Origin: Candidatus Uhrbacteria bacterium
GTDB lineage: Bacteria > Patescibacteriota > Patescibacteriia > JACQRZ01
DNA length: 64,000 nucleotides
Assembly (NCBI GenBank): GCA_016206155.1
Contig: JACQSC010000004.1
Location: forward strand, 147,591-211,590
Reading direction: 5' to 3'
In this document: positions 4,635 through 33,262 of the stretch, one piece after another
Layout: every line of letters begins with the position of its first letter
Numbering within the stretch: position 1 is the first letter of the stretch
Made by a program: the position numbers and the translations under genes
Notes under the pieces: generated by a model
What the model was told of the DNA's origin: nothing
The model's input: the letters and a program-made list of their open reading frames with translations, nothing else
The model's database searches: none

Positions 4635-5568
4635 ATCGGGATCGTTCTCTTGTCGTAACAAGAACGTCCCACACCACTGGGCAAACGGTTTTCCCGTACC
4701 CTAGCGGTTCCTATAGTGCTTTTTTGAAAAAGCTCGCATCTGGTCGCGAATATGCAGGACAGCATTAAACCCTTCATCAGTAAGATGTTTTTTCTCTTTA
4801 ATCATAAAACATGCTTGACGAAAGAGTGAATAGACATCCTTCTTCTTCCCTTGAAGTTTGTGCTTGTCGAAGAAGGGGATAACAAACTGACAAAGATCGC
4901 GAACACTGCCTACTTTATACTTCGCGTGAGGCGCCCAATCATATCGCTTGTAGTGGAGATCATACAACGATCCGCATCCGATTGTTGCTTGGATGCGTTC
5001 TAATATCTCCCGATCGTCAATGCGTAGTTCAATCTCGAAAAGAGGACGAAGGTCCACTTTTCGTTTCATGGTTGTATGTTTCGATGCACCAATACAGAAA
5101 CATCCTTCGCCATCAACGAATCCAGCGACATAATTGGGGTCGAGCTTTTGAGCACTAAAGGTTCGGTCCTTCTCCGATTGCGTATCGGATACTATGACCT
5201 CTGCTGACTTCTTGCATTGCGTCGACATATCGTTACCGCTCTGTCTTAATTTCTCAGTGTTAGTATACTACAATTTTATAGTACCCCCAAGAAATACAAT
5301 ACAAGATCTCCCTGGGTCATGTCTTGTCCCGTTTTCCTTCATCTCCGGCATTCTTTACATGCGTACGTTTATTAATGAAAAGATGACTTCTCCCTATACA
5401 CGCGGGATCGTCACGTACCCATGCCTCAACAAATGCTCAAGCTGAAAGATGCTACTTTCATTCTCCACATGTATCCTCGCGGATACATGCTATAATTTCG
5501 CTTCAAAGAATCTTTTCTTTCTTTGGTGTGATTTTCACACACTGGCACAAAACACTACCAGGCGCTCC
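4635..5568 (-). mobile_element. 16S intron 1 (~934 nt, at about E. coli position 1391/1392) carrying a single-motif LAGLIDADG homing endonuclease.
   Basis: The exon sequence GACGGGCGGT at 4625-4634 resumes as GTGTACAAAATCTGAGAACGTATTCACCG at 5569. The intervening sequence has no rRNA similarity. Confidence 0.8.
4701..5228 (-). CDS. LAGLIDADG homing endonuclease, single motif (YVAGFVDGEGCF), encoded in 16S intron 1.
   Basis: 175 aa with a canonical LAGLIDADG block near the N-terminus, on the same strand as the rRNA. Confidence 0.85.
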   Translation of the reverse strand: MSTQCKKSAEVIVSDTQSEKDRTFSAQKLDPNYVAGFVDGEGCFCIGASKHTTMKRKVDLRPLFEIELRIDDREILERIQATIGCGSLYDLHYKRYDWAPHAKYKVGSVRDLCQFVIPFFDKHKLQGKKKDVYSLFRQACFMIKEKKHLTDEGFNAVLHIRDQMRAFSKKHYRNR

Positions 5569-5877
5569 GTGTACAAAATCTGAGAACGTATTCACCGCAC
5601 CATGGCTGATGCGCGGTTACTAGCGATTCCGGCTTCATGGAGGCGAGTTGCAGCCTCCAATCCGAACTGGGGTCACTTTTTAGGGATTAGCTCCGTCTCG
5701 CGACTTGGCGACCCGTTGTGGTGACCATTGTAGCACGTGTGTAGCCCAGGGCGTAAGAGCCATGCTGATTTGACGTCGTCCTCGCCTTCCTCCCCGTTAA
5801 CCGAGGCGGTTTCTCGTGAACAATGCAACACGAGATGAGGGTTGCGCTCGTTTGAGGACTTAACCCGACATTTCACA

Positions 5878-5909
<32 letters not shown>

Positions 5910-5985
5910 CTCAGCGTTCCCTTGCGGGCACTTTCCTGTTTCTAGGAAATTCGCTGGATGTCAAACCCTGGTGAGGTTCCTCGCT

Positions 5986-6022
<37 letters not shown>

Positions 6023-6174
6023 AGATTCCCGTCAATTCCTTTAAGTTTTAGCCTTGCGGCCGTACTTCCCAGGCGGGATGCTTAACGAGTTATCTTATGT
6101 AAACGGCACTGAAAGGGTCGATACTTCCAATACCTAGCATCCATCGTTTACGGCGTGGAATACGCGGGTATCTA

Positions 6175-7176
6175 CAATTATTGTTACGCTCCTGACAAAT
6201 GTCAGAGCGACTCGATTTCACTCGAGTTCCTCATATCGCTAATGAGGTTCGGACTATCTCATCACCTCTTGAAATTGAGGAAGTTGATATACGATCGCTG
6301 GCTGCCGATATGATTCAATCATTAGATTGAGAATCGACTGCTTCTCATAATCAAACCAAAACTTTGAATGAAGTGTTGCTGTCACACCCTTCACAAAGCC
6401 GATGCGTTCCTGAAAAAGCCGTATATCCCTTTCCGTCTCAATTTTTATTTTCCTGTCACATGGCACTTCTCGCGCACGAATACCATTCCACCGAAGAAGG
6501 GTAAGGTAATCCGTGCGAAGTTGTTTATGATTACATGCGAGAAAAATCGTCCGAATAAGCCGGAAGGTTTTTCTCTCATTCTTCCCTCGCCGAAATGCGG
6601 GATATAAACTAACTCCTCCATCGCAACTAAAAGCTGCCTGAAGAAAGTTACGATCATATCCACTGCTTCTCAGCTGAAGCACTGGAATGGTGGCATGCGG
6701 TATACTTCCGTCGGAGAATGACAATGTCCGAAATCCTCCGAACCGCTGAACCAAAGTATTACCGATCTCTTTCGAGTTAACAATCGCCTTAAAGAGACCG
6801 TCTCGCGTCATTCAGAGACGTACTCTCTGTGCATCAAGTGAAAATGCGCCGATCATACTTGATCGAAAAAGATCAACTAAACTTTTTGATTTACAGGCAA
6901 AGTATATTCGCCAACTTTCCTTCTTCTTTGGGGAAACACATCCGTCGGTATAAAGCAAACCGAGAAGTGTTGCCAGGTCTTTTCCAATTGAGGTGCCCGA
7001 CATATAGTCTCTGAGGAGCCCCTTCTTTTTAATAAGGGTTTCCTGCTGATTGACTGTACGAAACGCATTGTTACTCCTAGTATTGTACCATGAGTAGCGT
7101 TCGATTTCCAGTTGTTCCAGCATATAGTCGGGTTTTTTTCCTCTCGTCACCGAGAGGGTGGACCAGATACCATTTG
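6175..7176 (-). mobile_element. 16S intron 2 (~1.0 kb, in the 785-806 region) carrying a double-motif LAGLIDADG endonuclease ORF.
   Basis: Exon GGGTATCTA ending at about 6174 resumes as ATCCGCTTCTCTCCCCACGCTTTCG at about 7177. Confidence 0.8.
6254..7150 (-). pseudogene. Double-motif LAGLIDADG homing endonuclease split by an in-frame TGA at 6812-6814. Motif 1 is LLGLLYTDGCVS and motif 2 is LQAAFSCDGGVS.
   Basis: ORFs 6812-7150 and 6254-6811 are contiguous in the same frame, separated only by TGA. Each half carries one LAGLIDADG motif. Confidence 0.6.
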
Positions 7177-7573
7177 ATCCGCTTCTCTCCCCACGCTTTC
7201 GTCCCTGAGCGTCAGAACTGTTCCAGTACCCTGCCTTCGCTTTTGGTGTTCCTGCCGATATTAAAGCATTTTACTGCTACACCGGCAATTCCAGGTACCT
7301 CTCCCAGCCTCTAGCTCGATAGTATCGTGCGCGGTCCTGATGTTGAGCACCAGGATTTAACACACGACTTACCGGGCCGCCTGCGGACCCTTTACGCCCA
7401 ATAAAACCGGATAACGCTTGGACCACTCGTATTACCGCTGCTGCTGGCACGAGTTTAGCAGGTCCTTATTCGTACGGTACACTCAGAACTTGTTCCCGTA
7501 CAAAAGCAGTTTACGCCCCGAAGAGCTTCTTCCTGCACGCGGCGTCGCTCCCTCAGACTTTCGTCCATTGGGG

Positions 7574-7604
<31 letters not shown>

Positions 7605-7901
7605 TAGGACAGTGTCTCAGTTCCCATGAGGCGGGTCATGCTCCCACACCCGCTACTCGTCGTAGCCTTGGTAGGCCGTTACCCTACCAACTAGCTGATG
7701 AGGCATAGGCCCCTCTTCAAGCGGATTGCTCCTTTACATGAGAATGTCTTATGACCCCTCATGACTATCGGGAATTAGCTCGCCTTTCGGCTAGTTGTGC
7801 CCGACTCGAAGGTAGGTTACCAATGTGTTACTCACCCGTTTGCCACTAGCGCTATCCAGTATTGCTACCGAATAACGCCCGTTCGACTTGCATGCCTTAG
7901 A

Positions 7902-7940
<39 letters not shown>

Positions 7941-8225
7941 TGTTTATGAGTTTGTTGACTCTTGTTTTCTTTGTTGAAGTTTCAATGAAACTTCAGGAAT
8001 TGACTTGCACGTATACAGCACGATCCCGCTTGCGCAGTATCGTTCCGTATACAAATTTATCGCCTTTTTACTGTCAAAGAACTGTTCCTTTTTCCACTGT
8101 TTAGTGTAGAAAAAAGAGAGAAGCCATATTCTTGTAGACGGCCTCACTCTTTTTTCCAAAACCGCTTTACTGTATTGTAAAAGGGGAGTGTTTGAAGGCT
8201 GTTTTGTTGATAATTTACAGCCCGT

Positions 8226-15951: not shown

Positions 15952-16023
15952 CTTGCTCCAGCCCTTCGCATCTCATCGTGCTGGTTCATTTCTAAGTGCC
16001 ATTTCATAGAGTGACGCCTATAT

Positions 16024-16701
16024 ATGCCGTTTAAAAATCGTGAAGAGGCTGGAATGCGCCTGGCGGAAAAACTTCTCGCATACAAAGATAATCCGTATGT
16101 CACCGTTATCGCGCTGCCGCGCGGTGGCGTGGTATTGGGTCGCAAGATAGCTGACGCGCTTCACGCGCCGCTCGACATTGTCGTCCCAAGAAAATTGGGC
16201 GCTCCGGACAATGAAGAGTATGCCATCGGTGCGCTCACAGAGGACGGGGGTGTGGTGTGGAACGAACTCGAAAAAAAACGCTATGGCGATGAAATACTCG
16301 CAATAATAGTGAAGCGTGAACGAAAGGAAGCGCTGCGCCGGCTTTCGATCTATCGAAAGGGATTGCCGTCCCGCGTTCTCAAAAATAAAATCGTCGTCCT
16401 TGTTGATGACGGCGTTGCAACAGGCTACACAATTCGCTCGGCGATAAAAACGATTGAAATCGAACAACCTGAAAAAATCATCGCTGCGCTTCCGGGGGGT
16501 CCCGAAGATACCATCAGTCTTCTCAAGAAAGAGGTGGATGAGGTTATCGTCCTTGAGATTCCTCAATTCTTTGCCGCGGTTGGGCAACTCTATGAGGACT
16601 TTCCACAAGTAACGGATTCACAAGTCATTGCGCTATTGGGGAAATGGGGTCTGGCTCAATTTCCGAAGGAATTTGTGCCTGACCCCATTTCCCCGTTATA
16701 A
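16024..16701 (+). CDS. Phosphoribosyltransferase-domain protein (COG1926-like). The C-terminal 17 aa are encoded by a dispersed repeat copy.
   Basis: PRTase core VLVDDGVATGYTIRSAI (PRPP-binding motif). The C-terminus ...KWGLAQFPKEFVPDPISPL derives from the repeat at 16642-16690. Confidence 0.7.
   Translation: MPFKNREEAGMRLAEKLLAYKDNPYVTVIALPRGGVVLGRKIADALHAPLDIVVPRKLGAPDNEEYAIGALTEDGGVVWNELEKKRYGDEILAIIVKRERKEALRRLSIYRKGLPSRVLKNKIVVLVDDGVATGYTIRSAIKTIEIEQPEKIIAALPGGPEDTISLLKKEVDEVIVLEIPQFFAAVGQLYEDFPQVTDSQVIALLGKWGLAQFPKEFVPDPISPL
16642..16690 (+). repeat. Copy 3 of the dispersed ~50-nt palindromic element, forming the 3' end of the PRTase CDS.
   Basis: AAATGGGGTCTGGCTCAATTTCCGAAGGAATTTGTGCCTGACCCCATTT. 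Confidence 0.85.
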
Positions 16702-16706
16702 CCCCT

Positions 16707-17612
16707 ATGAACGTATACACCTTACCCAACCCGCGCCCGCTCGAAATCAGCATCGCAAAAAAACTGGACAAAGCATTCGCGCGCAACACTGAATGGCGGC
16801 AATTCACCAACGGTGAATGGTTTCTCCGCATTACCAAAACCGCATCGAGTGTTATCGTCCTCGGACGCACAGAGCCACCGGCCGACAATCTCCTCCAAAC
16901 GCTCTTGCTTCTTGATACCCTCAAGAGAAACGGCGCAAAAAAAATCATACTCGTTGTGCCGTACTTCGGATACGGTCGCCAGGATCGTGTCGTGCGCAAT
17001 GGCGACCATCTCCCCGCCGATCTTTTTCTCACCCTATTCAAAACATGCGGGGCAAATCGTGTCATTACCGTTGATATTCATAGCCAAGCGACAAAAAAAA
17101 GCTCGTCACTTCCATTATATACCGTGGACTTCATGCCCGCTGTTGCCTCGTTCATGAAAAAAGAATCTTTTACAAAAGACGCCTTCACCATCGTCTCTCC
17201 CGATCATGGAGGTCGGCGACGGGCAGATCAACTGCGCGATCTTCTCAGCCCATCCTCCTCAGTCTGTTGGCTAAAAAAAATCCGTGACCCCAAAACAGGG
17301 GCTGTTCATTCTCGCGAACTCTTTGGCATGAAAAGAGGAACAACCGCACTCATTGTTGATGATATTCTTGATACCGGCGGCACCATTGCGCAAGCGGTTG
17401 GCGTACTAAAAAAACACGGCTTTACTACCTTTTATCTTGCCTCCACCCATCCGATTTTTTCCGCGCGCGCAACACAAACCATTCGCGCCCTTCGTTTCAA
17501 AAAAATAGTTACCTCAAACACTCTGCCGCTTTTATCAAGCACACAAAAAACCCTGCCGATCGTTGTGATCGATATCGCGCAGGAACTCACCGGCGCGATA
17601 ATGAACCGATGA
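16707..17612 (+). CDS. prs: Ribose-phosphate pyrophosphokinase (PRPP synthetase).
   Basis: PYFGYGRQDR, the DIHS block, and the PRTase-type C-terminal motif LIVDDILDTGGT. Confidence 0.85.
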   Translation: MNVYTLPNPRPLEISIAKKLDKAFARNTEWRQFTNGEWFLRITKTASSVIVLGRTEPPADNLLQTLLLLDTLKRNGAKKIILVVPYFGYGRQDRVVRNGDHLPADLFLTLFKTCGANRVITVDIHSQATKKSSSLPLYTVDFMPAVASFMKKESFTKDAFTIVSPDHGGRRRADQLRDLLSPSSSVCWLKKIRDPKTGAVHSRELFGMKRGTTALIVDDILDTGGTIAQAVGVLKKHGFTTFYLASTHPIFSARATQTIRALRFKKIVTSNTLPLLSSTQKTLPIVVIDIAQELTGAIMNR

Positions 17613-17614
17613 AG

Positions 17615-17660
17615 TGGTGTCAGGTACAAATTCCTTCCGGAAATTGAGCCAGGCACCATT
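17615..17660 (-). repeat. Copy 4 (degenerate, opposite orientation) of the dispersed palindromic element, between prs and the plsC-HAD gene.
   Basis: GGTGTCAGGTACAAATTCCTTCCGGAAATTGAGCCAGGCACCATTT. Confidence 0.6.
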
Positions 17661-19094
17661 TCACTTCTCGTGAATAATGCGCATTCCCAAGTTCTTACAG
17701 CGCGCACCGAATGATTTTTTTGGATTGACCAGAGCCGCATGTCCGACGCCCCTCAACATGGCATAGTCGTGATAGGAGTCGCCATACGCATAACTTTTAG
17801 AAAGATCAAGGTTGTGTTTTTTTGCCAGCTCTATCATTTTCTCTCGTTTGTATTCATCTTTCATCAGATGGCCTACCACCTCGCCGGTAAATACTCCTTT
17901 TTCCTTTTCAAGTATGGTTCCAAAACATGGAACGCCAAGCAGTTTTGAAATCGGATCGAGAATCTCTTGGGGCTCCTCACTTATGATGAACACCGCGTTT
18001 CCTTTTTCTTGATGGGAGCGGACGAGCTCAAGCATCTGAGGATAAAACAGCTCTTTTTTGTGTTTTTTCAGGTATCCATAAAATCCACTTAAAAATTCAG
18101 TAGCGCGAATGCCTTTCAACATTCGAATGGCGGCGAGATAAAAGTACCCGTGTTTAAGCAGCATTCGCTTTACGAGCAGACGAGGAATTTTCTGGAAATT
18201 ACCCGCGCTGACGTGCGCCATGAGATATCGCACAACCAATTTTTGATAGATATTTGAGCGCGTCAGCGTGTCGTCAAGATCAAAAAACGCAGCCCTCTTT
18301 CCGTGAGGAATGTGGGGAATACTCTGCTCTGAAAAATATGACTTGGGAAGGTGCTTTTTTATTCTTCTCTCCAAATACACCACATCCTCCAAAACATTTG
18401 AAGAAACATCCCACAGCGCAACCGGGGGCATAATCGTTGCCTCGAGGTGAACCGGATGAATCGTCACATGGTGGGTTGGAAAAAACGTATCGACATGCGC
18501 CAAGGTAATGGGGACAACCGGCGCACACGCCTCAAGCGCGATTTTAGCAACCCCGAGGTGAAAAGGGAGAAGCCGTTTTTTAAACTCGCGGCGCCCTTCG
18601 GGAAAAATAAGAAGCGACGTTCCACTTTTAAGCGTCGTGACACATGCGGCGATAGCTTGCTCGGCATGAATCGTTTCCTCGTACCTCAGCTCCTCGAACA
18701 CATCGCGCGAAACGCTAATGCACCCCATATGCGCAAACCATCGCCGAATGATGGGGGGGAACTCATCAAAAGGCGCCGTTATGGCGGCAAAGGGTCGGCG
18801 AACAATATGTAAAATGACGAGTGGGTCAAGATAGCTCTGGTGGTTTGCGGCAAACACGACCGGACACTCCGGTATCTTTTCGCACCCCGTAACCTTGATT
18901 CGAACACGAACGAGAAAAAACAGCGTATCAATTAAATGAAGAGAGAGCTTTCGCCACGCCTCAATATTTTGTGCGCGTTTACTGTCTCCAAACCGTATGT
19001 GTCCGTACAGAAAAAAAAGATAGAGTAGCGCCAAAAAAATCGTGTAAAAATACACGCTATAGATAACGCACTTAAGCTGGTGTGTCGCTCTCTT
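17661..19094 (-). CDS. Fusion protein: N-terminal 1-acyl-sn-glycerol-3-phosphate acyltransferase (PlsC) domain plus C-terminal HAD-superfamily (subfamily IB-like) hydrolase domain.
   Basis: Acyltransferase motifs NHQSYLD (HX4D) and FPEGRR, then the HAD motif I FFDLDDTLT. The track ORF start extends upstream, and its first codons overlap the cyclase gene. Confidence 0.7.
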   Translation of the reverse strand, partial: KRATHQLKCVIYSVYFYTIFLALLYLFFLYGHIRFGDSKRAQNIEAWRKLSLHLIDTLFFLVRVRIKVTGCEKIPECPVVFAANHQSYLDPLVILHIVRRPFAAITAPFDEFPPIIRRWFAHMGCISVSRDVFEELRYEETIHAEQAIAACVTTLKSGTSLLIFPEGRREFKKRLLPFHLGVAKIALEACAPVVPITLAHVDTFFPTHHVTIHPVHLEATIMPPVALWDVSSNVLEDVVYLERRIKKHLPKSYFSEQSIPHIPHGKRAAFFDLDDTLTRSNIYQKLVVRYLMAHVSAGNFQKIPRLLVKRMLLKHGYFYLAAIRMLKGIRATEFLSGFYGYLKKHKKELFYPQMLELVRSHQEKGNAVFIISEEPQEILDPISKLLGVPCFGTILEKEKGVFTGEVVGHLMKDEYKREKMIELAKKHNLDLSKSYAYGDSYHDYAMLRGVGHAALVNPKKSFGARCKNLGMRIIHEK

Positions 19095-20763
19095 CATTAT
19101 CTTTAAATCCTCTGAATGAATATACTGTCTGCTCACCCATGTTCTTCAACACTATTACCTTTTCCTCAACCAACACCACCTCCTTCACGAACGCGTATGC
19201 ATTTGGACCGATCAGAATTTCGTTCACGCCCGCGGTTTGTTCGAGTCGTGCCGCAAAGTTAATTGTCTCGCCCAAGAAATCCCAGATGCGATCGTCGGCT
19301 GGTCCGATTTCACCGGCAATAAAGTCGCCATACTCGATACCGATGCGAATGTCCCAGCCCATCTCCCGTACAAGTATACCAATTTTTGTCGCCGCCTCCA
19401 ATGCGTTATGCGTCAAAACCGGGTAATCCTCGTTTTCCTTGTATCCGCCAAACACCGCCATTATGCCGTCCCCCATGTATTTATAGACCCACCCGTTGCG
19501 CGAACGAATAACGGTGTTTGAAATTTCGCAGTACCGATTCAGTTCCACCATCATCCCGCCAAAATCCTCTGTTGAATGCACGCGCTTACTAAACCCCACC
19601 AAATCTGCAAAAAAGACCACGCCGCTATGGCGCTTTGGCGCGAGCTTGTGAATGGTCATGCGCGATACCAGCTCGGTCGGCAGATGGGAGCTGAGGATTG
19701 CGGTAAGTTCATTCTTCAGGCGTTCAATTTCCTTCTTCTCTTCTGAAATAACTTTGTTGCGCTGACGCACCGCATCCTCAAGCTCTTGCGAGTATCGTTG
19801 AAAATAACTCGCGCGATCCTCGATCTCTTGAAGATAATTATCGGCGTGTTCGGGCCGTACGGCGCGCAATTTTTTTACCAATCGCTTGTGAAACGGCTCA
19901 TGTTGCCACTGCATGCGTAAAATAAAATAGGGCGCGTTATAAATCTGCCCCCGCTCTAGAAGTAAATAATTTTTATACCGATAATCTTTTGTAATCAAAA
20001 TGCCGCGATGCTCATCTGCTTCATGCGGGTCGCGATGCGATCCAACGTAATGAAAGTCACTGCCGACTTTTTCCTTTACGAGTCCGACAACCTTTCCGTG
20101 CGGCTCGCCCTCGACAAAAAGCATATCATCTCTGATCTCGGAAAGAATTGAAAACTGCTCGCGCAAAAGGCGCACAACGTCATACTCAAGAAGAATCTCC
20201 TGCACATCGGCGTGCGGTTGTTTCCAGATTCGCGGAATGCCCGCGATTACGCCTTTTACAATCGGCCCCGAGTGAAAGTCGTGCACGGGATCAATGTGAT
20301 CGCGAAATTTTACTTTAAAAAAAGCGTGCTCGCGGCCCAGATCGACAACATGGATATCTTTTGTCTTGTTAAAATATTGGTTGTACTTTGGCACGCGCCT
20401 AATCAGTACCTTTGGGTCGGCAAAAACCGAGGCGAGCATGCGCTTCATAACCTCAAGCATGCCCAAGCCGCCTTCAGACGTTGAGGATGCACCGATTTCG
20501 TAAAACACAGACGGGTCATTGTCGTGCAAAATGCGCGCGCGTTTGGTAATTTCCCGAAACACCGAGAATGGGATCCAATTGTCAGGATTCGTCAAATAGC
20601 TTTCGGGGTACCCCAAACCGGATAAAAGAGCATCCGGTGAGATGCTCCTTTTCTTGCAATATTCTACGATTAAATTCACGTTCCGCGTCGAAACGCTCAG
20701 TGGTTCATCGTTATCATTGTCATCCTGGCGAAGGCCGGGATCCAGTCCTTTTTGTAATCCCAT
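19072..20763 (-). CDS. Class III adenylate/guanylate cyclase with a ~350-aa N-terminal domain of unknown function.
   Basis: C-terminal catalytic core FADLVGFS...YMGDGIMAVFG...INFAARLE. The N-terminal region carries no recognisable motif. Confidence 0.75.
   Translation of the reverse strand: MGLQKGLDPGLRQDDNDNDEPLSVSTRNVNLIVEYCKKRSISPDALLSGLGYPESYLTNPDNWIPFSVFREITKRARILHDNDPSVFYEIGASSTSEGGLGMLEVMKRMLASVFADPKVLIRRVPKYNQYFNKTKDIHVVDLGREHAFFKVKFRDHIDPVHDFHSGPIVKGVIAGIPRIWKQPHADVQEILLEYDVVRLLREQFSILSEIRDDMLFVEGEPHGKVVGLVKEKVGSDFHYVGSHRDPHEADEHRGILITKDYRYKNYLLLERGQIYNAPYFILRMQWQHEPFHKRLVKKLRAVRPEHADNYLQEIEDRASYFQRYSQELEDAVRQRNKVISEEKKEIERLKNELTAILSSHLPTELVSRMTIHKLAPKRHSGVVFFADLVGFSKRVHSTEDFGGMMVELNRYCEISNTVIRSRNGWVYKYMGDGIMAVFGGYKENEDYPVLTHNALEAATKIGILVREMGWDIRIGIEYGDFIAGEIGPADDRIWDFLGETINFAARLEQTAGVNEILIGPNAYAFVKEVVLVEEKVIVLKNMGEQTVYSFRGFKDNEESDTPA
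20721..20748. repeat. GC hairpin mini-repeat ATCCTGGC-GAAG-GCCGGGAT. A related copy is at 23675-23700.
   Basis: 8-bp stem with a GAAG loop. It lies within the 5' end of the cyclase CDS and encodes GLDPGLRQDD. Confidence 0.5.
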
Positions 20764-20817
20764 AGCGTTCGTATCATACCTCCGTTATGCGCCAAAGTAA
20801 ATACGCGCCCAAGCGGG

Positions 20818-20872
20818 TTGACATTCCGTAAGGGGGGGCAGAATGGGTGTGTTCGCGCGGAAAGGGAGAGCT
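20818..20872 (+). promoter_or_regulatory. Conserved promoter/5'UTR module of small-protein cassette 1: TTGACA...GGGGGGGCAGAATGGG...GGAAAGGGAGAG before the ATG. It is about 90% identical to 22568-22623.
   Basis: Two copies in the window share a ~65-nt block including TTGACA and an SD-like GGAG. Confidence 0.6.
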
Positions 20873-21094
20873 ATGGAAACAATCAAGCGGATCGTCCGGG
20901 ATTTGTCCGGTGTGGTAGAAATTCTTCGGGAAAACGCTAGCCCAATAGAGCGATACAGCATGTATCGTGAAGTGAAGGCCATCGCGGCCGCTCTCGTGCT
21001 CAATGCAGAGTACGAGATGGACGAGGCCGGGCGTGAGGATCCGGCTGGAGTCGCAATACTCAGGAAGGCGCAGTGTTACCACCCTCACTGTTAG
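20873..21094 (+). CDS. Small hypothetical protein of 73 aa (cassette 1).
   Basis: Starts METIKRIVRDLSGVVEILREN..., downstream of the conserved UTR with GGAG 8 nt upstream, and followed by a conserved terminator. The antisense ORF 20774-21139 was rejected. Confidence 0.55.
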   Translation: METIKRIVRDLSGVVEILRENASPIERYSMYREVKAIAAALVLNAEYEMDEAGREDPAGVAILRKAQCYHPHC

Positions 21095-21110
21095 TCGCGA
21101 ACAACAAAGA

Positions 21111-21150
21111 GGGACGGATCGCCATTGTGTATCCGCCATTCAAAACTTTC
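21111..21150 (+). terminator. Conserved 3' module of cassette 1: hairpin GGACGGAT-N11-ATCCGCC followed by TTCAAAACTTTCTG. It is the homologue of 22881-22920.
   Basis: About 55 nt that is near-identical between the two cassettes, starting immediately after the stop codon (CGCGAACAACAAAGA...). Confidence 0.55.
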
Positions 21151-21249
21151 TGTTATCATCCAGGGCGCAGTCGAGAGACCTCCAGTGCTTTCCGTCTCAA
21201 CGATTTTCTCCAGAAAACACTCCTTGTAATACGAGGGCAATAAAATGGT

Positions 21250-21915
21250 TCATTGTTTTTTAAACATTTCCTTTATCCTTTTCTTCTCATCAGCAAACTG
21301 CTTTTGGTTCAGATTGAGTTCAGGGCATTCGACAGAGGTATCGAGAAGTGTAAGAATGCCAGAGATAAGAAACTCCTGCCCGAGCGCGCGTGTATGGTTT
21401 TTAAAAAGTGAGCCATCAAACGATGGATGAAAGAGAATGCTGAAAATATCAAGCTCATCTTTTTTTCCTTTCAGAGATCCTTTTCGGTCCTGATAGGCAT
21501 GACACTTCAGCAGGATCATTATTTCAATCTGCGGCACCGTGAATCCATCGACCGACTGCGTATGATCGCGAATAAAAGAAACGGGAATACCAAGATTGGA
21601 CCAGCCAGGAACATAGATGTCGATATCAAACCCCTCGTGCGGAATTTCATATTTTTTGAGTCGTTCATTTTTCTGAACGCCATAGCGGGTTTTTAAATCC
21701 GCGAGCGTATCAAATTCCACAATAATATCGATATCCTTTGATTTTAATGATCGAGTGTGAACGTACACCGCCCATCCGCCGATGAGAATGAAAAAAATCT
21801 GCTGTCTCAGCTCCTGGAGTACGATGAAACTTTTATCGGTGATGTTCTGATGCCAAAATGCCATAGGATTAGGAAAGTAACTCTTCAAGCTTTGGGAGGA
21901 TATCCTTTGCATACC
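21250..21915 (-). CDS. AbiEii-like nucleotidyltransferase toxin (DUF1814-like), tentative.
   Basis: Pol-beta-type NTase motif GGWAVYVHTRSLKSKDIDIIV. About 220-250 aa. It lies directly downstream of, and overlapping, an HTH regulator gene, which is the canonical abiEi-abiEii order. The start is uncertain. Confidence 0.55.
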   Translation of the reverse strand, partial: GMQRISSQSLKSYFPNPMAFWHQNITDKSFIVLQELRQQIFFILIGGWAVYVHTRSLKSKDIDIIVEFDTLADLKTRYGVQKNERLKKYEIPHEGFDIDIYVPGWSNLGIPVSFIRDHTQSVDGFTVPQIEIMILLKCHAYQDRKGSLKGKKDELDIFSILFHPSFDGSLFKNHTRALGQEFLISGILTLLDTSVECPELNLNQKQFADEKKRIKEMFKKQ

Positions 21916-22468
21916 ACTCAGGCGCGTTCCATATATCAGCAAACACTTGCTCAAGAAGCGGTTGGGGATAGCGAGAAAACAGCGGGTCCTTTTCAATAAC
22001 AAAAAAATTGGGGGCTAATCCACTATTCTTTTTCGAAACCCATACGCGTACACGATCACGAATCTCTGCACAGGTGTTTCGGTCGGCATACACATAGACA
22101 TGATCGTATTCCGTCGGCATCGCCGAGAGAAGAAATTGTGTCGCGCTATAGAGCCCAAAAGCGATCGCCGGTGGCATCGCCGCCTCAATGTCAAAGGAAC
22201 CTTTCTCAAGGCGCAGTGAAAACATCATGTCTTTTATCAACGAGCGCTCGGTCGCAAAAAGATAGAGAAGCTTTCTATAATCCTGTAGCACAAAAAAGCG
22301 CCCTGTCACACGGATGATTGACGTATCGCGAGCACTTTTAAGGGCATTAAAAACCGTGCTTGTTGAAATACCCAACGTGCTGGCAAGCTCTTTTTGGGTA
22401 AATCGAATCTGCCCATGTACCCGTTTTTGATAGAGAATCTCTCTATAAACAGCACATTTTTTATTCAT
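21869..22468 (-). CDS. AbiEi-like antitoxin/transcriptional regulator with an N-terminal winged HTH, tentative.
   Basis: HTH segment FTQKELASTLGISTSTVFNALK. 199 aa. It overlaps the downstream NTase gene. Confidence 0.5.
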   Translation of the reverse strand: MNKKCAVYREILYQKRVHGQIRFTQKELASTLGISTSTVFNALKSARDTSIIRVTGRFFVLQDYRKLLYLFATERSLIKDMMFSLRLEKGSFDIEAAMPPAIAFGLYSATQFLLSAMPTEYDHVYVYADRNTCAEIRDRVRVWVSKKNSGLAPNFFVIEKDPLFSRYPQPLLEQVFADIWNAPEWYAKDILPKLEELLS

Positions 22469-22530
22469 TTCGATTTTTTATCACAATTTATATACCCATT
22501 TCGATAATGCTCGAAATGAAATAATTTGTC
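22469..22530. promoter_or_regulatory. Candidate AbiEi operator: three copies of CATTTCGA(T/G), two direct and one inverted, in the abiEi promoter region.
   Basis: TCATTTCGAT at 22471, CCATTTCGAT at 22503, and CTCGAAATGA at 22517 (reverse complement). AbiEi proteins are known to autoregulate through inverted repeats. Confidence 0.35.
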
Positions 22531-22567
22531 AATACGACCAGTGGATTTGCCCAAACCTCTAGCAGTG

Positions 22568-22623
22568 TTGACATTCCGCGAGGGGGGGGCAGAATGGGGG
22601 TGTTCGCGTGGAAAGGAGAGGTT
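22568..22623 (+). promoter_or_regulatory. Conserved promoter/5'UTR module of small-protein cassette 2.
   Basis: GTTGACATTCCGCGAGGGGGGGGCAGAATGGGGGTGTTCGCGTGGAAAGGAGAGGTT then ATG. Confidence 0.6.
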
Positions 22624-22860
22624 ATGAACCGACATAAACAAGGATTGGGGGGACTTCGAATTCTTTATGAGGAGCTGGGACGGCTCCTCAGCCCGGATGA
22701 GATTCCGGTCAATAAAGAGGAATTTTTCATGAAAATAGCCGACTCAGCGGACGCCCTCCGGGTGTCTGCGCGTGGTCTGGCAAACGCCGGTCTCACCGAA
22801 GGTCAAATCATCACACGGATCGCAAGAAGTGCGTGGATGGAGGTTTTCGGGAAGAAATAA
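22624..22860 (+). CDS. Small hypothetical protein of 78 aa (cassette 2). It is a divergent paralogue of the cassette-1 protein.
   Basis: Starts MNRHKQGLGGLRILYEELGRLLSPDEIPVNKEEFFMKIADSADAL.... It has weak positional similarity to cassette 1 (L.G...IL.E...SP.E), and identical flanks. Confidence 0.55.
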   Translation: MNRHKQGLGGLRILYEELGRLLSPDEIPVNKEEFFMKIADSADALRVSARGLANAGLTEGQIITRIARSAWMEVFGKK

Positions 22861-22880
22861 GATGCGCGAACAACAAAGAA

Positions 22881-22920
22881 GGGCGGATCGCCATCGTGCA
22901 TCCGCCCTTCAACACTTTTT
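22881..22920 (+). terminator. Conserved terminator of cassette 2: GGGCGGAT-cgccatcgtgc-ATCCGCCC followed by TTCAACACTTTTT.
   Basis: 8-bp GC stem plus a T-run. Confidence 0.6.
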
Positions 22921-23015
22921 ACTCAATTTTTCCTATTCGTATATTACCGGCAAAGTCGGTTCTCCATATCTTGATTCGCTGACAAAAAATGCGCCGAGAA
23001 CGAACAAACACCATC

Positions 23016-23546
23016 TTATCGCTCTCCGTGGAGCAGTCGCTCAAACGCCTCCATATTCCCCAAAGCATCGTGAACGGGGTTGTGATCATGGGGTGTTCTG
23101 CGCAGTTTTTTCCATGACGACGCATCCGTGATATCGCCAACAAGGCCGGCGTAAAAATCTCCTATACGCCGCGCGGAATGGCCGAAAGGATTTTTGCCAA
23201 GCGTCCGCCAGAAACCATCATTGATCCATTGCCAGTCAAAGGCGGGGTTGTCACTGATAAAAATCGGACGTCCTTCCTTTTTTCCAAATACTGTTTTTTC
23301 ATCGCTTATTCTTTCTATAACAACAGGAATCGCCTGATTATGTTCAGCGGGTCTTGTTCGTGCGAGCACGCCGTGAAACTTCTCTTGGATCAAAACGTTT
23401 CGCGCAAGCTGGCTGAGGAACTTCAAGGAGATTTTCCAGGAACAGCCCATGTATATTTGTGCGGATTGCGTTTGAAAGAGAAAAGAAACACGGCTGTTTT
23501 CAAATTTTTTCACTGTAGCCGCTAAACGACTTCTTCCAAATAACAC
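23016..23546 (-). pseudogene. DEDDh (DnaQ-like) 3'-5' exonuclease fragment. Exo II and Exo III motifs are present, but the Exo I DxE motif is absent.
   Basis: DNPAFDWQWIND (Exo II-like) and HNPVHDALGN (Exo III H-x4-D). There is no N-terminal DxE block, so it appears N-terminally truncated. Confidence 0.45.
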
Positions 23547-25300
23547 TCTTTGCAGTAGACGCGCTCATCCAAAGCAGGGTCCCATGTCGTCTGGAATGGA
23601 CGCTTACACGGGGTCTGGCTCAATTTCGCTTGCGAATTTGTGCCTGACCCCATTTCCTGCCCGCCCCCGCTCTCATTCCGGCGAAGGCCGGAATCCAGTC
23701 CAGTTTTCAACTAATGCTGGCTGTGCGTCGCTTCACCACAATCACACGTCCCTGACCACAGCTGTTTTGGATTTCTCTTTGCCATTCGTGCCTTGTGGCG
23801 TTCAAGAAAACTTTTGTCTGGGACATGGATATTCAGGCGACGATAAAATGCCAGCTCTTGTTTGATATATTTGAACTTCTGGCCGGTGTCTTTATCTGCA
23901 AGAACTCTGTCACACCACGAGTCGTCGACGTCTTTGATGCTATCGGGAATTTCGGTTGCCTCGCCTCGCTTGATATCGGCAGAATCGTCCCAGCGAAATC
24001 CTTTTTCCAGTGCCTTCTCTTTTGAGAGGGGCATAAAAATCCCAGCATTGGATGTATTGTACGCAAAGGGACTGTACTCGGGTGGGAAGAACTCGCCCCA
24101 TTCGCCGGTTTCCTTCATATGCTCTATGAGTTTAGTGCGGAGCTTCTCATATTCATCTTTGGTGTATTGCTTGTTGAGGATGCAGTACTGGCCCTTTTTC
24201 AAGTTACTGCAGCCAAAACAATTTTGAATCGAGCGACAGAAATAGCAATAATCTACCTCAGCGCACCCCTCCATGACCCCCCAGCTCCACCGTATATTAT
24301 ACGAACTAAACCCGCAGACAGCCGAATAATAAAACCGGGAACTACCCTCCCCGCACTCAAACGTTTCATAACAATCCTTTATCGGTAAAAACGCTGCTTC
24401 ACAATACTTTGAATCCTCCACGCGAAACCCGTCATAACATTCAATCGCATTTTTTGAATTGATGAGATAATCACCAGTGCAATCAACATTACTCATCCCG
24501 TGCATATATTGCTTGGGAAATTTCTTTTTGTGCTCATCAAACTTTTCCGCCCACTCACGCACAACTGATCGGCGGGAAAGGTCGGCTCCCTGCAAACGTT
24601 TTTCGTATTCCTCCTTTGAGATCCTCTCGTTAAACCAATAGTACTCGGCATTTTTCAAATTCGCGCACCCAAAACAGTTTATACAGTTGGAGAGATTATA
24701 TCCGAAAATACATTCATTTGAGTCCTGAACATTTTGGCAATAGAAACATTTGTAGCATTTCAAACAGTCGATACATTCATAACACAGCTCTGATTCGCGC
24801 ACCTTCAAGCAGTCGACCGCGTCTTTACTGTTTTGAAGCGTATATGAATAATACGAATCTTCATTCACGTCGCTGTCAAAAACCAAATAACAGTTCTTTA
24901 CCGCGCTGCAATAGTTAATGTAATCGCTGTTTACGATATTCCCTTCAATAACAAAACGTGATGCGTGAGGGACGCTCCTATCGAGGTCTGCGAACTGCTC
25001 AAAAAATGGGCGAGAAAAATCAATATCGCGTGCGAAGGAACGCGCGTCCCATGAGTCGCCCCACCAGGCGGCATTGTTGTATACCGGGAATGGTGTACCC
25101 TCCGGGTACATTGCAAGTATCTGTTTTCCCGTGAGGTCGCATTTTCTTGGATAGAGCAATAATTCATTTTCCCACATGAGCTGAACCCGCCGCCGGCACG
25201 GATGGCACCGTCGTGGCGGAGGAACATCAAACGAACGAAAAAACTTGTGGTCTTTCTCATCAAATGAGAATTCTTTTTTACATTGAATGCAGATATTCAT
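23522..25300 (-). CDS. Cysteine-rich paralogue A of the unknown-function family. Its C-terminal zinc-ribbon region is disrupted by an in-frame TAG (23711-23713) plus two repeat insertions, so it is possibly a pseudogene.
   Basis: Collinear with paralogue B from MNICIQCKKEF to ...LWSGTCDCGEATHSQH, then a stop. The same frame continues LKTGLDSGLRRNESGGGQEMGSGTNSQAKLSQTPCKRPFQTTWDPALDERVYCKECYLEEVV, matching B's C-terminus. Confidence 0.6.
23609..23655 (-). repeat. Copy 5 of the dispersed palindromic element, inserted in-frame in the C-terminal region of paralogue A.
   Basis: GGGGTCTGGCTCAATTTCGCTTGCGAATTTGTGCCTGACCCCATTT. Confidence 0.8.
23675..23700. repeat. GC hairpin mini-repeat ATTCCGGC-GAAG-GCCGGAAT, adjacent to copy 5.
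   Basis: Perfect 8-bp stem, homologous to 20721-20748. Confidence 0.5.
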
Positions 25301-25370
25301 AGTACCGATACTATACATCTGCTTATGGCTGATGTCTATGTAGTCCTTCGCGTACTCTTTGAGCAACACC

Positions 25371-25937
25371 TCAAGTAAACTCGCTTAACAGCCGCTGGGT
25401 TAGCACCCACGGGAGACCGATAATACTCTCGCGTTCGCCCTCGATATGATCAATGAATGGCATGAAAAGAGAATCGACGATACTGAATCCGCCGGCGAGC
25501 TCATACGTCCGCGGGTAAGCAACAATCTGTGCAACAGCTTCGTGTTGTAACGCGCGAAACCATACCCTCCCACGATCAACGCCATCTGCCCGTTCCCCGG
25601 TCTCGGTATTAGTAACAACAACCGCCGTTACGGTTTCAGCGGGATGAGCTGTATACATTTGGAGCATAGCCCGTTCCTCATCTTCATTTTCCGGCTTCTC
25701 TAAAATTTCTCCGTTGCATAAGACGACTTGGTCTGAGGTAATAAGAAGCGCGGGCTTCTTGATTCGCGGAATCAACGCATCTGCTTTTGCGTGAGCAAGA
25801 AGGAGTACGAGTTTTTCCGGGTCCGGATCACGAATCGCCCTCTCGTCGATATCAGAACTCATGACATCAAAGCTAAAGCCCCTCTCTTCAAGGATTATTT
25901 TTCTGCCTTTTGACGCCGAACCCAAAATTATCTTCAT
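25371..25937 (-). CDS. maf: Maf-like nucleoside triphosphate pyrophosphatase (septum formation protein Maf family).
   Basis: MKIILGSASKGRKIILEERGFSFDVMSSDIDE N-terminus. Its ATG overlaps paralogue B's stop (ATGA). Confidence 0.75.
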   Translation of the reverse strand: MKIILGSASKGRKIILEERGFSFDVMSSDIDERAIRDPDPEKLVLLLAHAKADALIPRIKKPALLITSDQVVLCNGEILEKPENEDEERAMLQMYTAHPAETVTAVVVTNTETGERADGVDRGRVWFRALQHEAVAQIVAYPRTYELAGGFSIVDSLFMPFIDHIEGERESIIGLPWVLTQRLLSEFT

Positions 25938-27667
25938 ACAATCTCCTTTTGATAACACGCCTCGCAAAAAACTTTCTCGGAGCGGTCGGGGGCGTACGTT
26001 GTCTCAAACATGGTTGGACATTGACTGCCCGCCTTCGTCCGCCGTTGCTGAAGCTCTGGCGCGACTTCGGCGCGGGAACCATGGTCGTGCCCTGCGCGGT
26101 CGCACATACACTGGCGGTGCCACAGATGGCGGGGATTGCGCATGCGCATGCGCGCCATATGGCGACAATCAAAGCAACGGCGGGGGAGTGGCACGTTCAT
26201 TTTTTTATAAAATGATAACTCCGCTTTTACAATCTTAAAGTTTTTGCCGCAGTCACTACAGGCTAACACCTCGCGCATAATGGATTCGTCAATGTGCGCA
26301 ATGTCATCGGGAACGGAGCTCCACTCCTTTGTTGGTTTCCCGAACTTTCCTGCTGTCTCATCACACCAATTGAATCCTTGCCCCAATGCTTCCTCTTTTG
26401 AAAGAGGGAAGTCATCATTAGCGATTGTTTCATTGTACCCAAACGCGGAGAGATTGGCAGGAAAAAACTGACCATACTCACCACGACGCGACATATCTTC
26501 AATAATTCTCGCGCGCAATTTTTCGTACTCTTCTTGTGAATACTGCGTATTTAAAATACAAAACCTCGCCTTACGCAATCCCTGCGAACCAAAACAGTTG
26601 TCGCTGTTCATAACGTATGAACAATATTGAAGGTTTGAGCTCGCCCACGAGTATTGGCAAAACTGTTCGTTCATTGCCGGTTCAATATTGCTCAATACGT
26701 CACAGAATAACTCGCTACCCAGTGCAATATAATTACTGTCATAGCTGTCTTTTGTCGGACCGGGTGATATAACAATGTATTTACAATCCTCGAGATTTCT
26801 CGCATCAAAGCATTCATTTGCATTTACGCAGTTCAATAGGTAATTGCCGGTTGAATTCTCGCAACGGGTCTGTTGAGAATATTTATGTATCGCCACCGTA
26901 TGAATCATCGATATAAAATCTTGTTTTAACCCTTCTATCTTTGTGTAACTGCCAAAATAAATAGCGCTCATCCTTTTCTCATACTCGCCCCTATTAAGCT
27001 GCTCATTGTTGAACACATAGTTCTTGTTTTTGAGGTTTGCGGACATAAAGCAATTGGTGCATCCACTGCAGTCATAGAGGAAAGATGAATCCATACAATT
27101 GCTCGATTGCTGGCACCAGGAGCTGTTATACATTTTCTCGCAATCAACGAGTTCGTATCCCAGCTCGCTTCCGCGCGCGAACATTGAATCTACAACATTT
27201 TGACTCTCTGCAATCTGGAGGCCGTAGTAACAATCTTCATTTCCACCAGAGGAAATAAGGAGGTATCCATTTCTGTTTTCCCAACAATGCGCTGTGAAGT
27301 CAGAATTTTCTCCGCTTTTGCTCATCATCGCTATTTGCGGAACCGAACGAAAAAGATCTTTCAGCTGATCAAAAAATGGAGCCGAAGGATCGTACTTGCG
27401 AGCATACAAAAACGGATCCCAGTTGTCGGACCACCAGCATGGCTGGCAATAAACCGGGCCCGCGTAGGATGGAGAATAAAAATTTACCGTTATTTTTTTG
27501 CACAAATCGCATGCACGGCTGTATAGCGCGCGTTCATTGCGAAAAGCAAAACGCCTCTGCCGCCGACAATCAGGGCAGAACGTCGGCTCGGGGACCTTGA
27601 TACGACGATAGAATGCTCGATCCTGTTCGATAATTTCAAATTGCTTAATACACTGCCCACAAACCAT
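25934..27667 (-). CDS. Cysteine-rich paralogue B (578 aa), the only apparently intact member of the unknown-function family. It has an N-terminal CxxC...CxxC zinc-ribbon-like segment, a central region with repeated N-C-x2-C-x2-C/N-L-K-like motifs, and a C-terminal CxC...HDHG...CxxC segment.
   Basis: MVCGQCIKQFEI...CPDCRR at the N-terminus, ...NCFGSQGLRK... in the middle, and ...HRQCMCDRAGHDHGS...FETTYAPDRSEKVFCEACYQKEIV at the C-terminus. The ATG at 27665-27667 lies 5 nt after the relE stop. Confidence 0.7.
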   Translation of the reverse strand: MVCGQCIKQFEIIEQDRAFYRRIKVPEPTFCPDCRRQRRFAFRNERALYSRACDLCKKITVNFYSPSYAGPVYCQPCWWSDNWDPFLYARKYDPSAPFFDQLKDLFRSVPQIAMMSKSGENSDFTAHCWENRNGYLLISSGGNEDCYYGLQIAESQNVVDSMFARGSELGYELVDCEKMYNSSWCQQSSNCMDSSFLYDCSGCTNCFMSANLKNKNYVFNNEQLNRGEYEKRMSAIYFGSYTKIEGLKQDFISMIHTVAIHKYSQQTRCENSTGNYLLNCVNANECFDARNLEDCKYIVISPGPTKDSYDSNYIALGSELFCDVLSNIEPAMNEQFCQYSWASSNLQYCSYVMNSDNCFGSQGLRKARFCILNTQYSQEEYEKLRARIIEDMSRRGEYGQFFPANLSAFGYNETIANDDFPLSKEEALGQGFNWCDETAGKFGKPTKEWSSVPDDIAHIDESIMREVLACSDCGKNFKIVKAELSFYKKMNVPLPRRCFDCRHMARMRMRNPRHLWHRQCMCDRAGHDHGSRAEVAPELQQRRTKAGSQCPTMFETTYAPDRSEKVFCEACYQKEIV

Positions 27668-27671
27668 AGTA

Positions 27672-27929
27672 TTATCGGTATAGATTACTGTGCGTATCAA
27701 GATCAACAAAATAAGCGACATTCTCGCCATCCAGTCGGTATACTGCGCGGTAGTCTCCTGTTATGTTAATGCTACGATAGCCAATCCACCTTCCAACAAG
27801 AGCGTGATTGTTGAGAATTGGATAGTTGATATCTGCGGCAAATAAAATAATCCGTTCTCTTGCCTGGTCTTTAAGGAACGGATATTTTTTCAGCTTCTTT
27901 TCAAATTTTTTGTGAAGAACTACTCTCAT
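27672..27929 (-). CDS. Type II toxin, YafQ/RelE family.
   Basis: HALVGRWIGYRSINITGDYRAVYRLDGENVAYFVDLDTHSNLYR. Confidence 0.7.
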   Translation of the reverse strand: MRVVLHKKFEKKLKKYPFLKDQARERIILFAADINYPILNNHALVGRWIGYRSINITGDYRAVYRLDGENVAYFVDLDTHSNLYR

Positions 27930-28201
27930 AATGCGCGAAAATAGCGAGAGATTTCTTCTTTCGTCGAGAGGATGGGCGAAAGATTCTTTTTTCTTTTATA
28001 GTCGCGTTCAGCGACAGCAATGGTTTTCTCAAGTTGTGGGGTCATCCGCGGAGGTGCGGAAACGCGAAATTCTCGCGTGCGCAACAGCTCTCTAAAATAC
28101 GCGTTCACGATGGTGCTTACGGGCATGCCAATTTCTCGCGCAAATTCCTGCACACCCTCCTTTACCTCTTTGTCGGTTTTGATGCTCATCATCGTCTTCA
28201 T
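27926..28201 (-). CDS. DinJ/RelB-like antitoxin.
   Basis: M(KTM)MSIKTDKEVKEGVQEFAREIGMPVSTIVNAYFRELL parallels the DinJ-like protein at 3036. It overlaps the toxin gene by 4 nt. The track ORF is over-extended upstream. Confidence 0.65.
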   Translation of the reverse strand: MKTMMSIKTDKEVKEGVQEFAREIGMPVSTIVNAYFRELLRTREFRVSAPPRMTPQLEKTIAVAERDYKRKKNLSPILSTKEEISRYFRAL

Positions 28202-33261: not shown

Positions 33262-33262
33262 G

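Follow-up and report, generated by a model that had tools for sequence, protein, structure and literature searches.

A dispersed family of short palindromes is present in a 64-kb stretch of DNA from Candidatus Uhrbacteria (the window, by which we mean the whole of the stretch analyzed), which represents 64 kb of a genome of roughly 1 Mb. The YchF and phosphoribosyltransferase proteins of the window are 100% identical to NCBI entries for ‘Candidatus Uhrbacteria bacterium’ from a 288-kb contig. The family is real and well defined: the window contains seven full copies of an imperfect palindrome of 50–65 nt, a remnant with an internal deletion, and a distantly related copy, and five of these nine copies are read in frame inside genes. 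We consider that they are probably short (50–65 nt), non-autonomous palindromic insertion elements resembling repetitive extragenic palindromic sequences and their hairpin-forming doublets (REP/REPIN), and that they behave like the Rickettsia palindromic elements (RPEs).

The copy first noticed, at 16642–16690, has the sequence AAATGGGGTCTGGCTCAATTTCCGAAGGAATTTGTGCCTGACCCCATTT. A sequence-only reading of the window had placed the element at seven positions, and direct inspection of the sequence found it at all of them. The core motif GGGGTCWGGCWCA, with two or fewer mismatches, has 20 matches in the window (about one per 3 kb), compared with 2.76 ± 1.58 expected, and none of 100 shuffled sequences reached 20. 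We trained a covariance model on 12 copies and ran it without filters over the window; the seven full copies scored 64–80 bits, each better in its own orientation by 17–32 bits, and the only matches outside the training set that rose above noise were at 48851–48939 (22 bits) and 697–737 (16.6 bits). A repeat finder grouped the arms into families of 7–9 members and recovered pairs of closely similar copies: the 3629 and 16640 copies share 98% identity over 52 nt, and copies 1 (1054) and 7 (41814) are 94% complementary over 54 nt.

The element consists of two arms, (G)GAAATGGGGTCTGGCTCA... and ...TGTGCCTGACCCCATTTC(C), around a short variable centre. On folding, the stem is 22 bp long, rather than the 17 bp proposed earlier, and reaches 31 bp in copy 1 (1054), where the flanks prolong the palindrome. 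Conserved mismatches break it at three arm positions (7, 11, and 15), as T·T on one strand and A·A on the other, so that two reversed copies show A·A; only two U·U mismatches had been described. Because these mismatches break the stem, the two arms are not equivalent (GGGGTCTGGCTCA versus GGGGTCAGGCACA) and each copy has an orientation. Two loop subfamilies can be distinguished, ...AATTTCC-GAA-GGAATT... and ...AGTTTTTGC-TCCT-GCAAAATC..., and the flanks of 15 copies read ..GAAAT-GGGG...CCCC-ATTTC...

The proposed hairpin is borne out both by folding and by covariation. The single-strand folding energies of the copies lie between −11 and −32 kcal/mol, with z from −4.5 to −12, the exception being a decayed copy in ychF (z = −1.7). 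Across 12 aligned copies, drawn from five assemblies, 91% of the stem cells pair, and seven pairs have changed on both sides (for example from A-T to G-C, in six versus six copies). The observed covariation score was not reached in any of 500 shuffles, and pairing fell to 28–53% when the partner was displaced by one to three columns. At the three mismatch positions the alignment is almost always T/T, whichever the loop subfamily or orientation.

The five translated copies lie in four genes. The copy at 16635–16697 (plus strand; −26 kcal/mol, z = −9.7; 80 bits) supplies the last ~19 codons of a phosphoribosyltransferase gene (16024–16701), whose product ends ...ALLGKWGLAQFPKEFVPDPISPL before the stop codon, the part contributed by the element being GKWGLAQFPKEFVPDPISPL; homologues end approximately four residues after ‘..VIxLL’. 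The gene for an M32 carboxypeptidase (minus strand, 1364 to beyond position 1, so that it leaves the window at the left edge) contains two copies. At site 1, a full copy of subfamily 2 with the loop TTTTGCTCCTGCAAAA (1054–1121, plus strand; −31.9 kcal/mol, z = −12; 74 bits) lies antisense and in frame, and is followed at 1121–1158 (plus strand; repeat family D4) by tandem partial duplications that are also in frame and encode EKMGS repeats. Such tandem partials had been reported for 1058–1158 and are indeed present, although in detail they comprise a 24-nt duplication of the right arm and a 14-nt piece. The antisense reading of the composite copy (1054–1158) gives HEKMGSEKMGSGSAEKMGSGTDFAGAKTEPDPIFSEEM, and the alignment sets 44 residues here against 16 in the homologue PDB 7a03. 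Site 2 holds the internally deleted remnant (697–737, plus strand; E = 0.003), through which the M32 frame also continues; on the gene strand the remnant is AAAATGTGGTCAGGCACAG joined to ACCCAATTTT, and it encodes AKMWSGTDPIF. An alternative genetic code was considered for apparent gaps between open reading frames (ORFs) and was rejected, as the ‘missing’ M32 gene runs off the edge of the window.

In ychF (40315–41409), the decayed copy (40936–41000, plus strand) encodes EMGSCSVSRRESAPDLIS directly after the G4 motif NVDE, and an AlphaFold2 model sets this insert in a loop with a predicted confidence (pLDDT) below 50. The gene for a UPF0020 methyltransferase (41399–42706, minus strand) contains a full copy of subfamily 2 together with an extra arm at 41875–41892 (41814–41892, minus strand; 70 bits); this copy encodes KKWGLAQTGSGSVFAAAKSVPDPV and lies in a linker, with 27 residues in the window and 11–18 in two orthologues (L240 and L241). 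Most copies in related loci are likewise translated in frame inside genes. Both copies in a second Uhrbacteria assembly (L058) are in frame, one in the linker between the S4 and catalytic domains of a pseudouridine synthase and the other in the head domain of a CCA/polyA polymerase.

The commonest form of the element, with the CCGAAGG loop, has no stop codon in four of its six reading frames. Both orientations relative to the host gene occur and three reading frames are used, and selection is therefore not on a peptide. The idea that the repeat exists at the protein level, as a peptide module (MGSG...PDPI) selected for its function, draws on the recurrence of MGSG-x-PDPI in several proteins. 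Set against it are the reading of the same DNA in different frames and orientations (KWGLAQFPKEFVPDPIS, MGSCSVSRRESAPDLIS, and MGSGTDFAGAKTEPDPIF), the presence of the element in non-coding DNA as well, and the modelling of the peptide as a disordered loop. We regard this idea as having almost no chance of being correct, and it is effectively refuted by the diversity of frames and orientations. When peptides encoded by the element were joined into one synthetic query, no protein scored against it.

The genes of the window are tightly packed and often overlap, and three further copies occupy the short spaces between them. The copy at 3624–3686 (plus strand; repeat family D8; 72.7 bits) is approximately 50 nt downstream of a YafQ/ParE-type toxin gene (3312–3572). 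A degenerate copy in reverse orientation (17605–17668, minus strand; 66 bits) lies between the convergent genes for phosphoribosyl pyrophosphate (PRPP) synthetase (16707–17612) and an acyltransferase/HAD protein (17661–19136), and exactly occupies the 48-nt space that separates their stop codons. The copy at 23599–23662 (plus strand; 64.5 bits) lies between two minus-strand genes and adjoins a repeat of a second family (23673–23706; see below). The ninth copy, the distant relative at 48851–48939 (plus strand; z = −5.4; E = 3e-5), has the arms GAAACTAGGGACAGTCACCGTTT and AAACGGTGGCTGTCCCCGTTTC around a 35-nt interior and is situated upstream of a methyladenine glycosylase gene. A good sigma-70-like promoter (TTGAAC-17-TATACT) is enclosed by this relative (48853–48936) and points into the glycosylase gene at 48879. 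A short palindrome, AAAGGGGTCAGGTACCTTTTT, at 48296–48330, which follows tandem GGCAAATAAAGG units just downstream of a tRNA-Ser gene, may represent this core in its minimal form.

The positions of the copies at 3624, 16635, 17605, and 23599, which are at gene 3′ ends or between convergent genes, would suit a cis-acting hairpin retained by host selection (a bidirectional terminator, a stabilizer of mRNA 3′ ends, or a protein site like those of bacterial interspersed mosaic elements), with spread being secondary. The compensatory changes that keep the stem paired, and the A-rich and T-rich flanks (AAAT...ATTT), which resemble worn terminator tracts, also fit such a role. However, when lenient criteria for intrinsic terminators were applied to 16000–24500, 11 sites were found and none coincided with the three copies in that interval, whose tail is only ATTTCC. 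Moreover, five copies are within genes, some along the direction of the gene and some against it, the intragenic copies are decaying, and close relatives have no element at the same junctions. A cis-acting function selected by the host thus appears to us distinctly unlikely.

Comparison of insertion sites, which had been proposed as a search for empty sites, showed that related genomes differ in the presence or absence of the element. Orthologous sites in related Uhrbacteria are empty, or carry the element in the same orientation, the element in the opposite orientation, or a different repeat, and the element has therefore been gained and lost. The ychF site is filled in the window and in one relative (P0002/L243; 85% identity), and eight close orthologues have ten unrelated residues instead of the element. 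Three syntenic 21-kb loci (63 kb in all) from relatives with ~82% YchF identity contain no copies. At the junction of the phosphoribosyltransferase and PRPP-synthetase genes, the copy is forward in the window and reversed in L244 and L245 (in L245 with a 20-nt central insert), L246 has a different repeat, and L247 is empty, with a 3-nt spacer. At the convergent junction between the PRPP-synthetase and acyltransferase genes, reversed copies of differing loop type are present in the window and in L244, where the PRPP-synthetase gene reads through its reversed copy; in L245 the genes overlap and there is no element, and in L247 only ‘ACCCCATTTT’ is present.

The copies in the M32 gene illustrate decay. 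An exhaustive search of representative proteins with the 39-residue M32 insert, a type of query for which short peptides give little statistical power, had as its sole match an M32 orthologue from Hainich groundwater (P0241/L248) with full elements at both sites. Site 1 of this orthologue contains a single copy, and site 1 of the window has gained the in-frame arm duplications; site 2 of the window corresponds to the full copy of the orthologue minus 24 nt, deleted between CAGA microhomologies. The copies differ in age, the near-identical pairs (98% and 94%) standing beside the decayed ychF and 17611 copies and the deleted remnant. These comparisons of sequence indicate that members of the family insert, pass to descendants, and then erode without disrupting the reading frame of the host gene.

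Copies are not restricted to the window, as the sequence-only reading had allowed that they might be, but are also present in other Uhrbacteria (L058, L244, L245, and L248). A palindrome pattern built on the 12-nt arm core (ATGGGGTCWGGC, 20–50 nt, GCCWGACCCCAT) matched at least 120 metagenome loci and one viral contig. Among the matches listed, 130 matches form at least 52 families by interior sequence, on contigs of 28–76% GC, and a large family is a 44-nt perfect palindrome from soils (GGAAATGGGGTCAGGCCCCGTTTCC TA GGAAACGGGGCCTGACCCCATTTCC). The pairs at the W position among these matches are A/T (99), A/A (20), T/T (11), and T/A (0), which identifies GGGGTCAGGC as the canonical arm. Certain families combine a canonical arm (GGGGTCAGGCAC) with a variant one (GGGGTCTGGCT). 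This is the arm asymmetry of the window, and it is found in another large but unrelated family, of 47 nt and from contigs of 58–69% GC, in which the same position-7 T·T mismatch appears on folding and an internal loop at position 11 recurs as well. The named genomes with true palindromes around the core, among the matches listed, belong to Actinomycetota, Oscillospiraceae, Planctomycetota, Telluria, and Uhrbacteria. A scan of a genome collection with the 16-mer AATGGGGTCWGGCWCA gave mostly chance single matches, the partner arm being present at 12 of the 118 loci among the matches listed, and a fixed-spacing pattern applied to those 16-mer loci gave no match.

We infer that tens of independent families probably far exceed chance, although the 12-nt core itself was imposed by the search pattern. 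It is possible, although we think it doubtful, that the Uhrbacteria element is a branch of a widespread and undescribed hairpin superfamily with the arm core (A)TGGGGTC[A/T]GGC and exchangeable palindromic interiors. In that tentative reading, the superfamily might extend through Patescibacteria, Firmicutes, Actinomycetota, Planctomycetota, Proteobacteria, and many uncultured lineages, from 28% to 76% GC. Two non-CPR copies (from outside the candidate phyla radiation) were examined further after a test for spanning ORFs on the metagenome copies, in which high-GC contigs were uninformative and spurious long ORFs were common: the copy in L216 appears to be intragenic, in a PGI-like ORF, and that in L189 lies between two amidohydrolase domains.

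A short core that is conserved in both orientations, within and between genes, could also be a DNA-uptake or other short recognition signal, often occurring as inverted pairs, as the uptake sequences of Neisseria do at terminators and in genes. Patescibacteria are thought to depend on DNA uptake. Nevertheless, almost every core in the window is paired, with a conserved spacer and flanks, copies at different loci are 94–100% identical over 52–54 nt, the density is about 1 per 3 kb, and the same core occurs in unrelated phyla, unlike lineage-specific uptake signals. We therefore give the uptake-signal explanation very little credence.

No target-site duplication was found in 15 copies (offsets 0–12, k = 2–8), the only recurrence being the self-complementary AT that is part of the palindrome. 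Copies have inserted at many unrelated loci in both orientations, and, because the genome has almost no intergenic space, most of the survivors occupy the least harmful places (the final codons of a gene, the space that separates convergent genes, and the variable surface loops and linkers of proteins). The intragenic copies are read through in an open frame, and copies decay by point mutation, in-frame internal deletion, and arm duplication. Mobilization might be carried out by a trans-encoded enzyme that recognizes the single-stranded hairpin in a strand-specific manner, like REP-associated tyrosine transposases (RAYTs) and the HUH transposases of the IS200/IS605 type, and mobilization of a single-stranded hairpin would leave no target-site duplication. 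We lean weakly toward this REP/REPIN-like mode, without considering it probable. It is favoured by the lack of duplications, the small size of the element, and the conserved strand-marking mismatches, and it is held weakly because no such enzyme was found in the DNA examined, the mismatches could be inherited without selection, and some relatives have non-palindromic interiors.

These reservations are part of a larger set of observations that weigh against the interpretation. No transposase, integrase, or HUH protein was found by Pfam scan among the ~65 ORFs of the window. An IS200 TnpA query had no match among 2,912 ORFs of 122 related loci (L058 and L119–L239), and all-against-all clustering of these ORFs recovered only syntenic orthologues, with no family recurring beside the element. 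The mismatches could persist without selection if a single master copy gave rise to all the others, and at site 1 of L248 two of them have been converted to pairs. The interiors of some relatives (L058 copy a, L239, and L245) are non-palindromic and suit the recognition of terminal inverted repeats as duplex better than the recognition of a hairpin. There is no bias in orientation relative to transcription. The ychF and methyltransferase inserts replace native residues and are not plain 51-nt additions, and no perfectly clean empty site was recovered among the orthologous loci.

Recognition as duplex is what would be expected of a true miniature inverted-repeat transposable element (MITE), a deletion derivative of an insertion sequence (IS) whose ~20-bp arms are bound by the DDE transposase of a full-length copy elsewhere. 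Terminal inverted repeats are present, in that the arms are conserved over ~20 nt while the interiors vary; the centre can be long and non-palindromic (50 nt in L058, 44 nt in the viral contig L239, and a 20-nt insert in L245), and an arm core is common to at least 52 interior families. As to the other hallmarks of MITEs, neither a target-site duplication (at any boundary offset in the 15 copies) nor a parent IS, in the form of inverted arms 0.3–5 kb apart in any fetched locus, was found, and no transposase was detected in the window or beside the elements. In addition, 50 nt is far below the usual size of MITEs, and the conserved strand asymmetry has no role in the recognition of terminal inverted repeats as duplex. 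We consider a MITE origin unlikely, while ranking it ahead of the other alternatives. The terminal repeat of the Tn3 family (GGGGTCTGACGCTCAG...) was considered as a source of the arms and rejected: the arms are ~20 nt rather than 38, AAAT stands outside GGGG, and there is no 5-bp duplication. No neighbouring protein recurred in 120 loci.

The sequence-only reading had assigned the element to the REP/MITE type. The class is supported by the dispersed imperfect palindromes, the subfamilies, the range of ages, and the differences in presence and absence, whereas the extragenic setting does not hold for the five copies read in frame in genes. The closest behavioural analogue is an RPE or an intragenic REP, because the copies are not extragenic. 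RPEs are palindromes dispersed in a small, gene-dense genome and found in frame in unrelated housekeeping genes, where their location in surface or linker regions makes them tolerable, and no transposase has been identified for them (PMC10969869; PMC3733652). The Uhrbacteria element shares with them the dispersal of palindromes in a gene-dense genome, in-frame insertion at permissive surface or linker sites, and the lack of an identified transposase. Insertion of the RPE type is seen in ychF, the M32 gene (two sites), and the methyltransferase, phosphoribosyltransferase, PRPP-synthetase (L244), pseudouridine synthase, and CCA/polyA-polymerase (L058) genes. The likeness drawn here is one of behaviour, and we do not assign the element to the RPEs. 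RPE-1 is ~100–150 bp long and confined to Rickettsia, whereas this element is ~50 nt long and found in Patescibacteria. Two short RPEs, RPE-4 and RPE-6, are members of the CGTC-tagged REP superfamily, whereas the Uhrbacteria element has no CGTC tag and has an arm core shared across phyla.

The defining mark of the classical REP superfamilies is a tetranucleotide, GTAG or CGTC, left unpaired at one end of the stem-loop (Di Nocera 2013, PMC3733652), and intragenic REPs are known, including the GTAG REPs of Opitutus terrae (PMC3733652; PMC3116915). The element resembles REP/REPIN sequences in being a short imperfect palindrome that forms hairpins with conserved mismatches and head-to-head doublets, in having subfamilies of different ages, and in leaving no target-site duplication. 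It differs from them in its far higher intragenic fraction and in its ends, as neither GTAG/CTAC nor CGTC/GACG was found at either end in the flanks of the 15 copies; no RAYT or IS200-like gene was detected in the ~65 window ORFs or the 2,912 ORFs of the related loci. Bacterial MITEs can create in-frame fusions (PMC10969869). Like MITEs (Correia/NEMIS, ERIC, and Nezha), the element is non-autonomous and has terminal inverted repeats and a variable interior; unlike them, it has no target-site duplication and no related full-length IS in the fetched loci, and it is 2–6 times shorter. The attC sites of integrons have conserved outer boxes, a variable and imperfectly palindromic centre, and unpaired bases that mark one strand. 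The Uhrbacteria element has the same general architecture, with conserved outer parts, a variable, imperfectly palindromic centre, and strand-marking unpaired bases, but its copies are single and dispersed, with no cassette arrays, no R′/R″ GTTRRRY boxes, and no integrase in the Pfam scans. Rfam gave no match at gathering thresholds, and at relaxed thresholds it gave only generic hairpin similarity to eukaryotic miRNA precursors (33–36 bits, compared with cut-offs of ~100). In the literature, we found no mention of this palindrome and no report of a REP, MITE, or REPIN in Patescibacteria.

The window also contains a second, unrelated palindromic family, GTCATYCCGGC...GCCGGRATCCAG (of the ‘VIPAQAGIQ’/‘LDPGLRQDD’ type), at 20720–20753, 23673–23706, 39369–39425, and 57760–57825, with copies at 1315–1370 of L244 and 7435–7463 of L246. 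This family is in frame at the N-terminus of a cyclase gene (19072–20763) and inside ruvC (185 residues, compared with 163 in relatives), and the ychF loop that carries the first element in the window is occupied by this second family in other Uhrbacteria (P0015, P0016, and P0020), where it reads ‘SLSVIPAQAACPPPCGGIQSS’. In L240 and L241, an extra gene (534–569 residues, no Pfam family) lies between ychF and the methyltransferase gene, which in the window (40279–42715) converge and overlap by 11 nt.

Several other features were recorded. The 16S rRNA gene (5505–7947, minus strand) is 2,443 nt long owing to a group I intron (6229–7186) that carries two ORFs, the second with a weak LAGLIDADG_3 match, as is typical of CPR rRNA genes. 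Just downstream of it, in the region 4701–5248, an Rfam match to group-II-D1D4-1 (5166–5248) overlaps the start of a LAGLIDADG_1 endonuclease ORF (4701–5228, minus strand), and no 23S gene follows in the window. A tRNA T-arm-like stretch, GGTTCGAGTCC, at 2955–2982 is 86% identical to the 3′ part of tRNA-Ile (2850–2926); it was not called by ARAGORN or Rfam and could be a tRNA fragment or part of an intron-containing tRNA. Two pairs of direct repeats (20832–20865/22583–22616 and 21096–21149/22865–22918; 34–54 nt, 89–94% identical, ~1.75 kb apart) suggest that a small gene has been duplicated locally along with the region upstream of it. A cluster of paralogous genes on the minus strand (23711–25369, 25934–27730, 27926–28438, and 28995–30344) shares conserved 3′ and 5′ stretches (repeat families D2, D5, and D6); one has a match to zf_Tbcl, a treble-clef zinc finger, the others match no Pfam family, and toxin-antitoxin genes are interspersed. 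The replication origin is likely to be at 32957–36332, in the order yidC-(rnpA/rpmH)-gap-dnaA-dnaN, with dnaA and dnaN at 33.6–36.3 kb; the cumulative GC skew has its minimum at ~36 kb, where the sign of the skew and the orientation of the genes switch.

Small palindromic repeats of the REP, REPIN, MITE, and RPE types are known already, and this family is new. It indicates that even the ultra-small, streamlined genomes of the CPR carry proliferating selfish DNA, which ends up translated inside essential proteins because intergenic space is lacking. As such, it represents a second, independent case of the phenomenon described for the RPEs of Rickettsia, and a natural experiment on the tolerance of proteins for insertions of 9–30 residues. 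For annotation, element-derived peptides (KWGLAQ... and MGSG...PDPI) should be expected as false ‘conserved motifs’ and as C-terminal extensions in CPR proteins. If the tentative superfamily is correct, a 12-nt core that has stayed the same in different phyla would imply that a conserved enzyme or host factor recognizes it, and in gene-dense CPR genomes the element would contribute new loops and tails to essential proteins to a significant extent. The shared core, together with the conserved strand-marking mismatch, offers a handle for identifying the mobilizing or binding protein by phylogenetic profiling against gene content.

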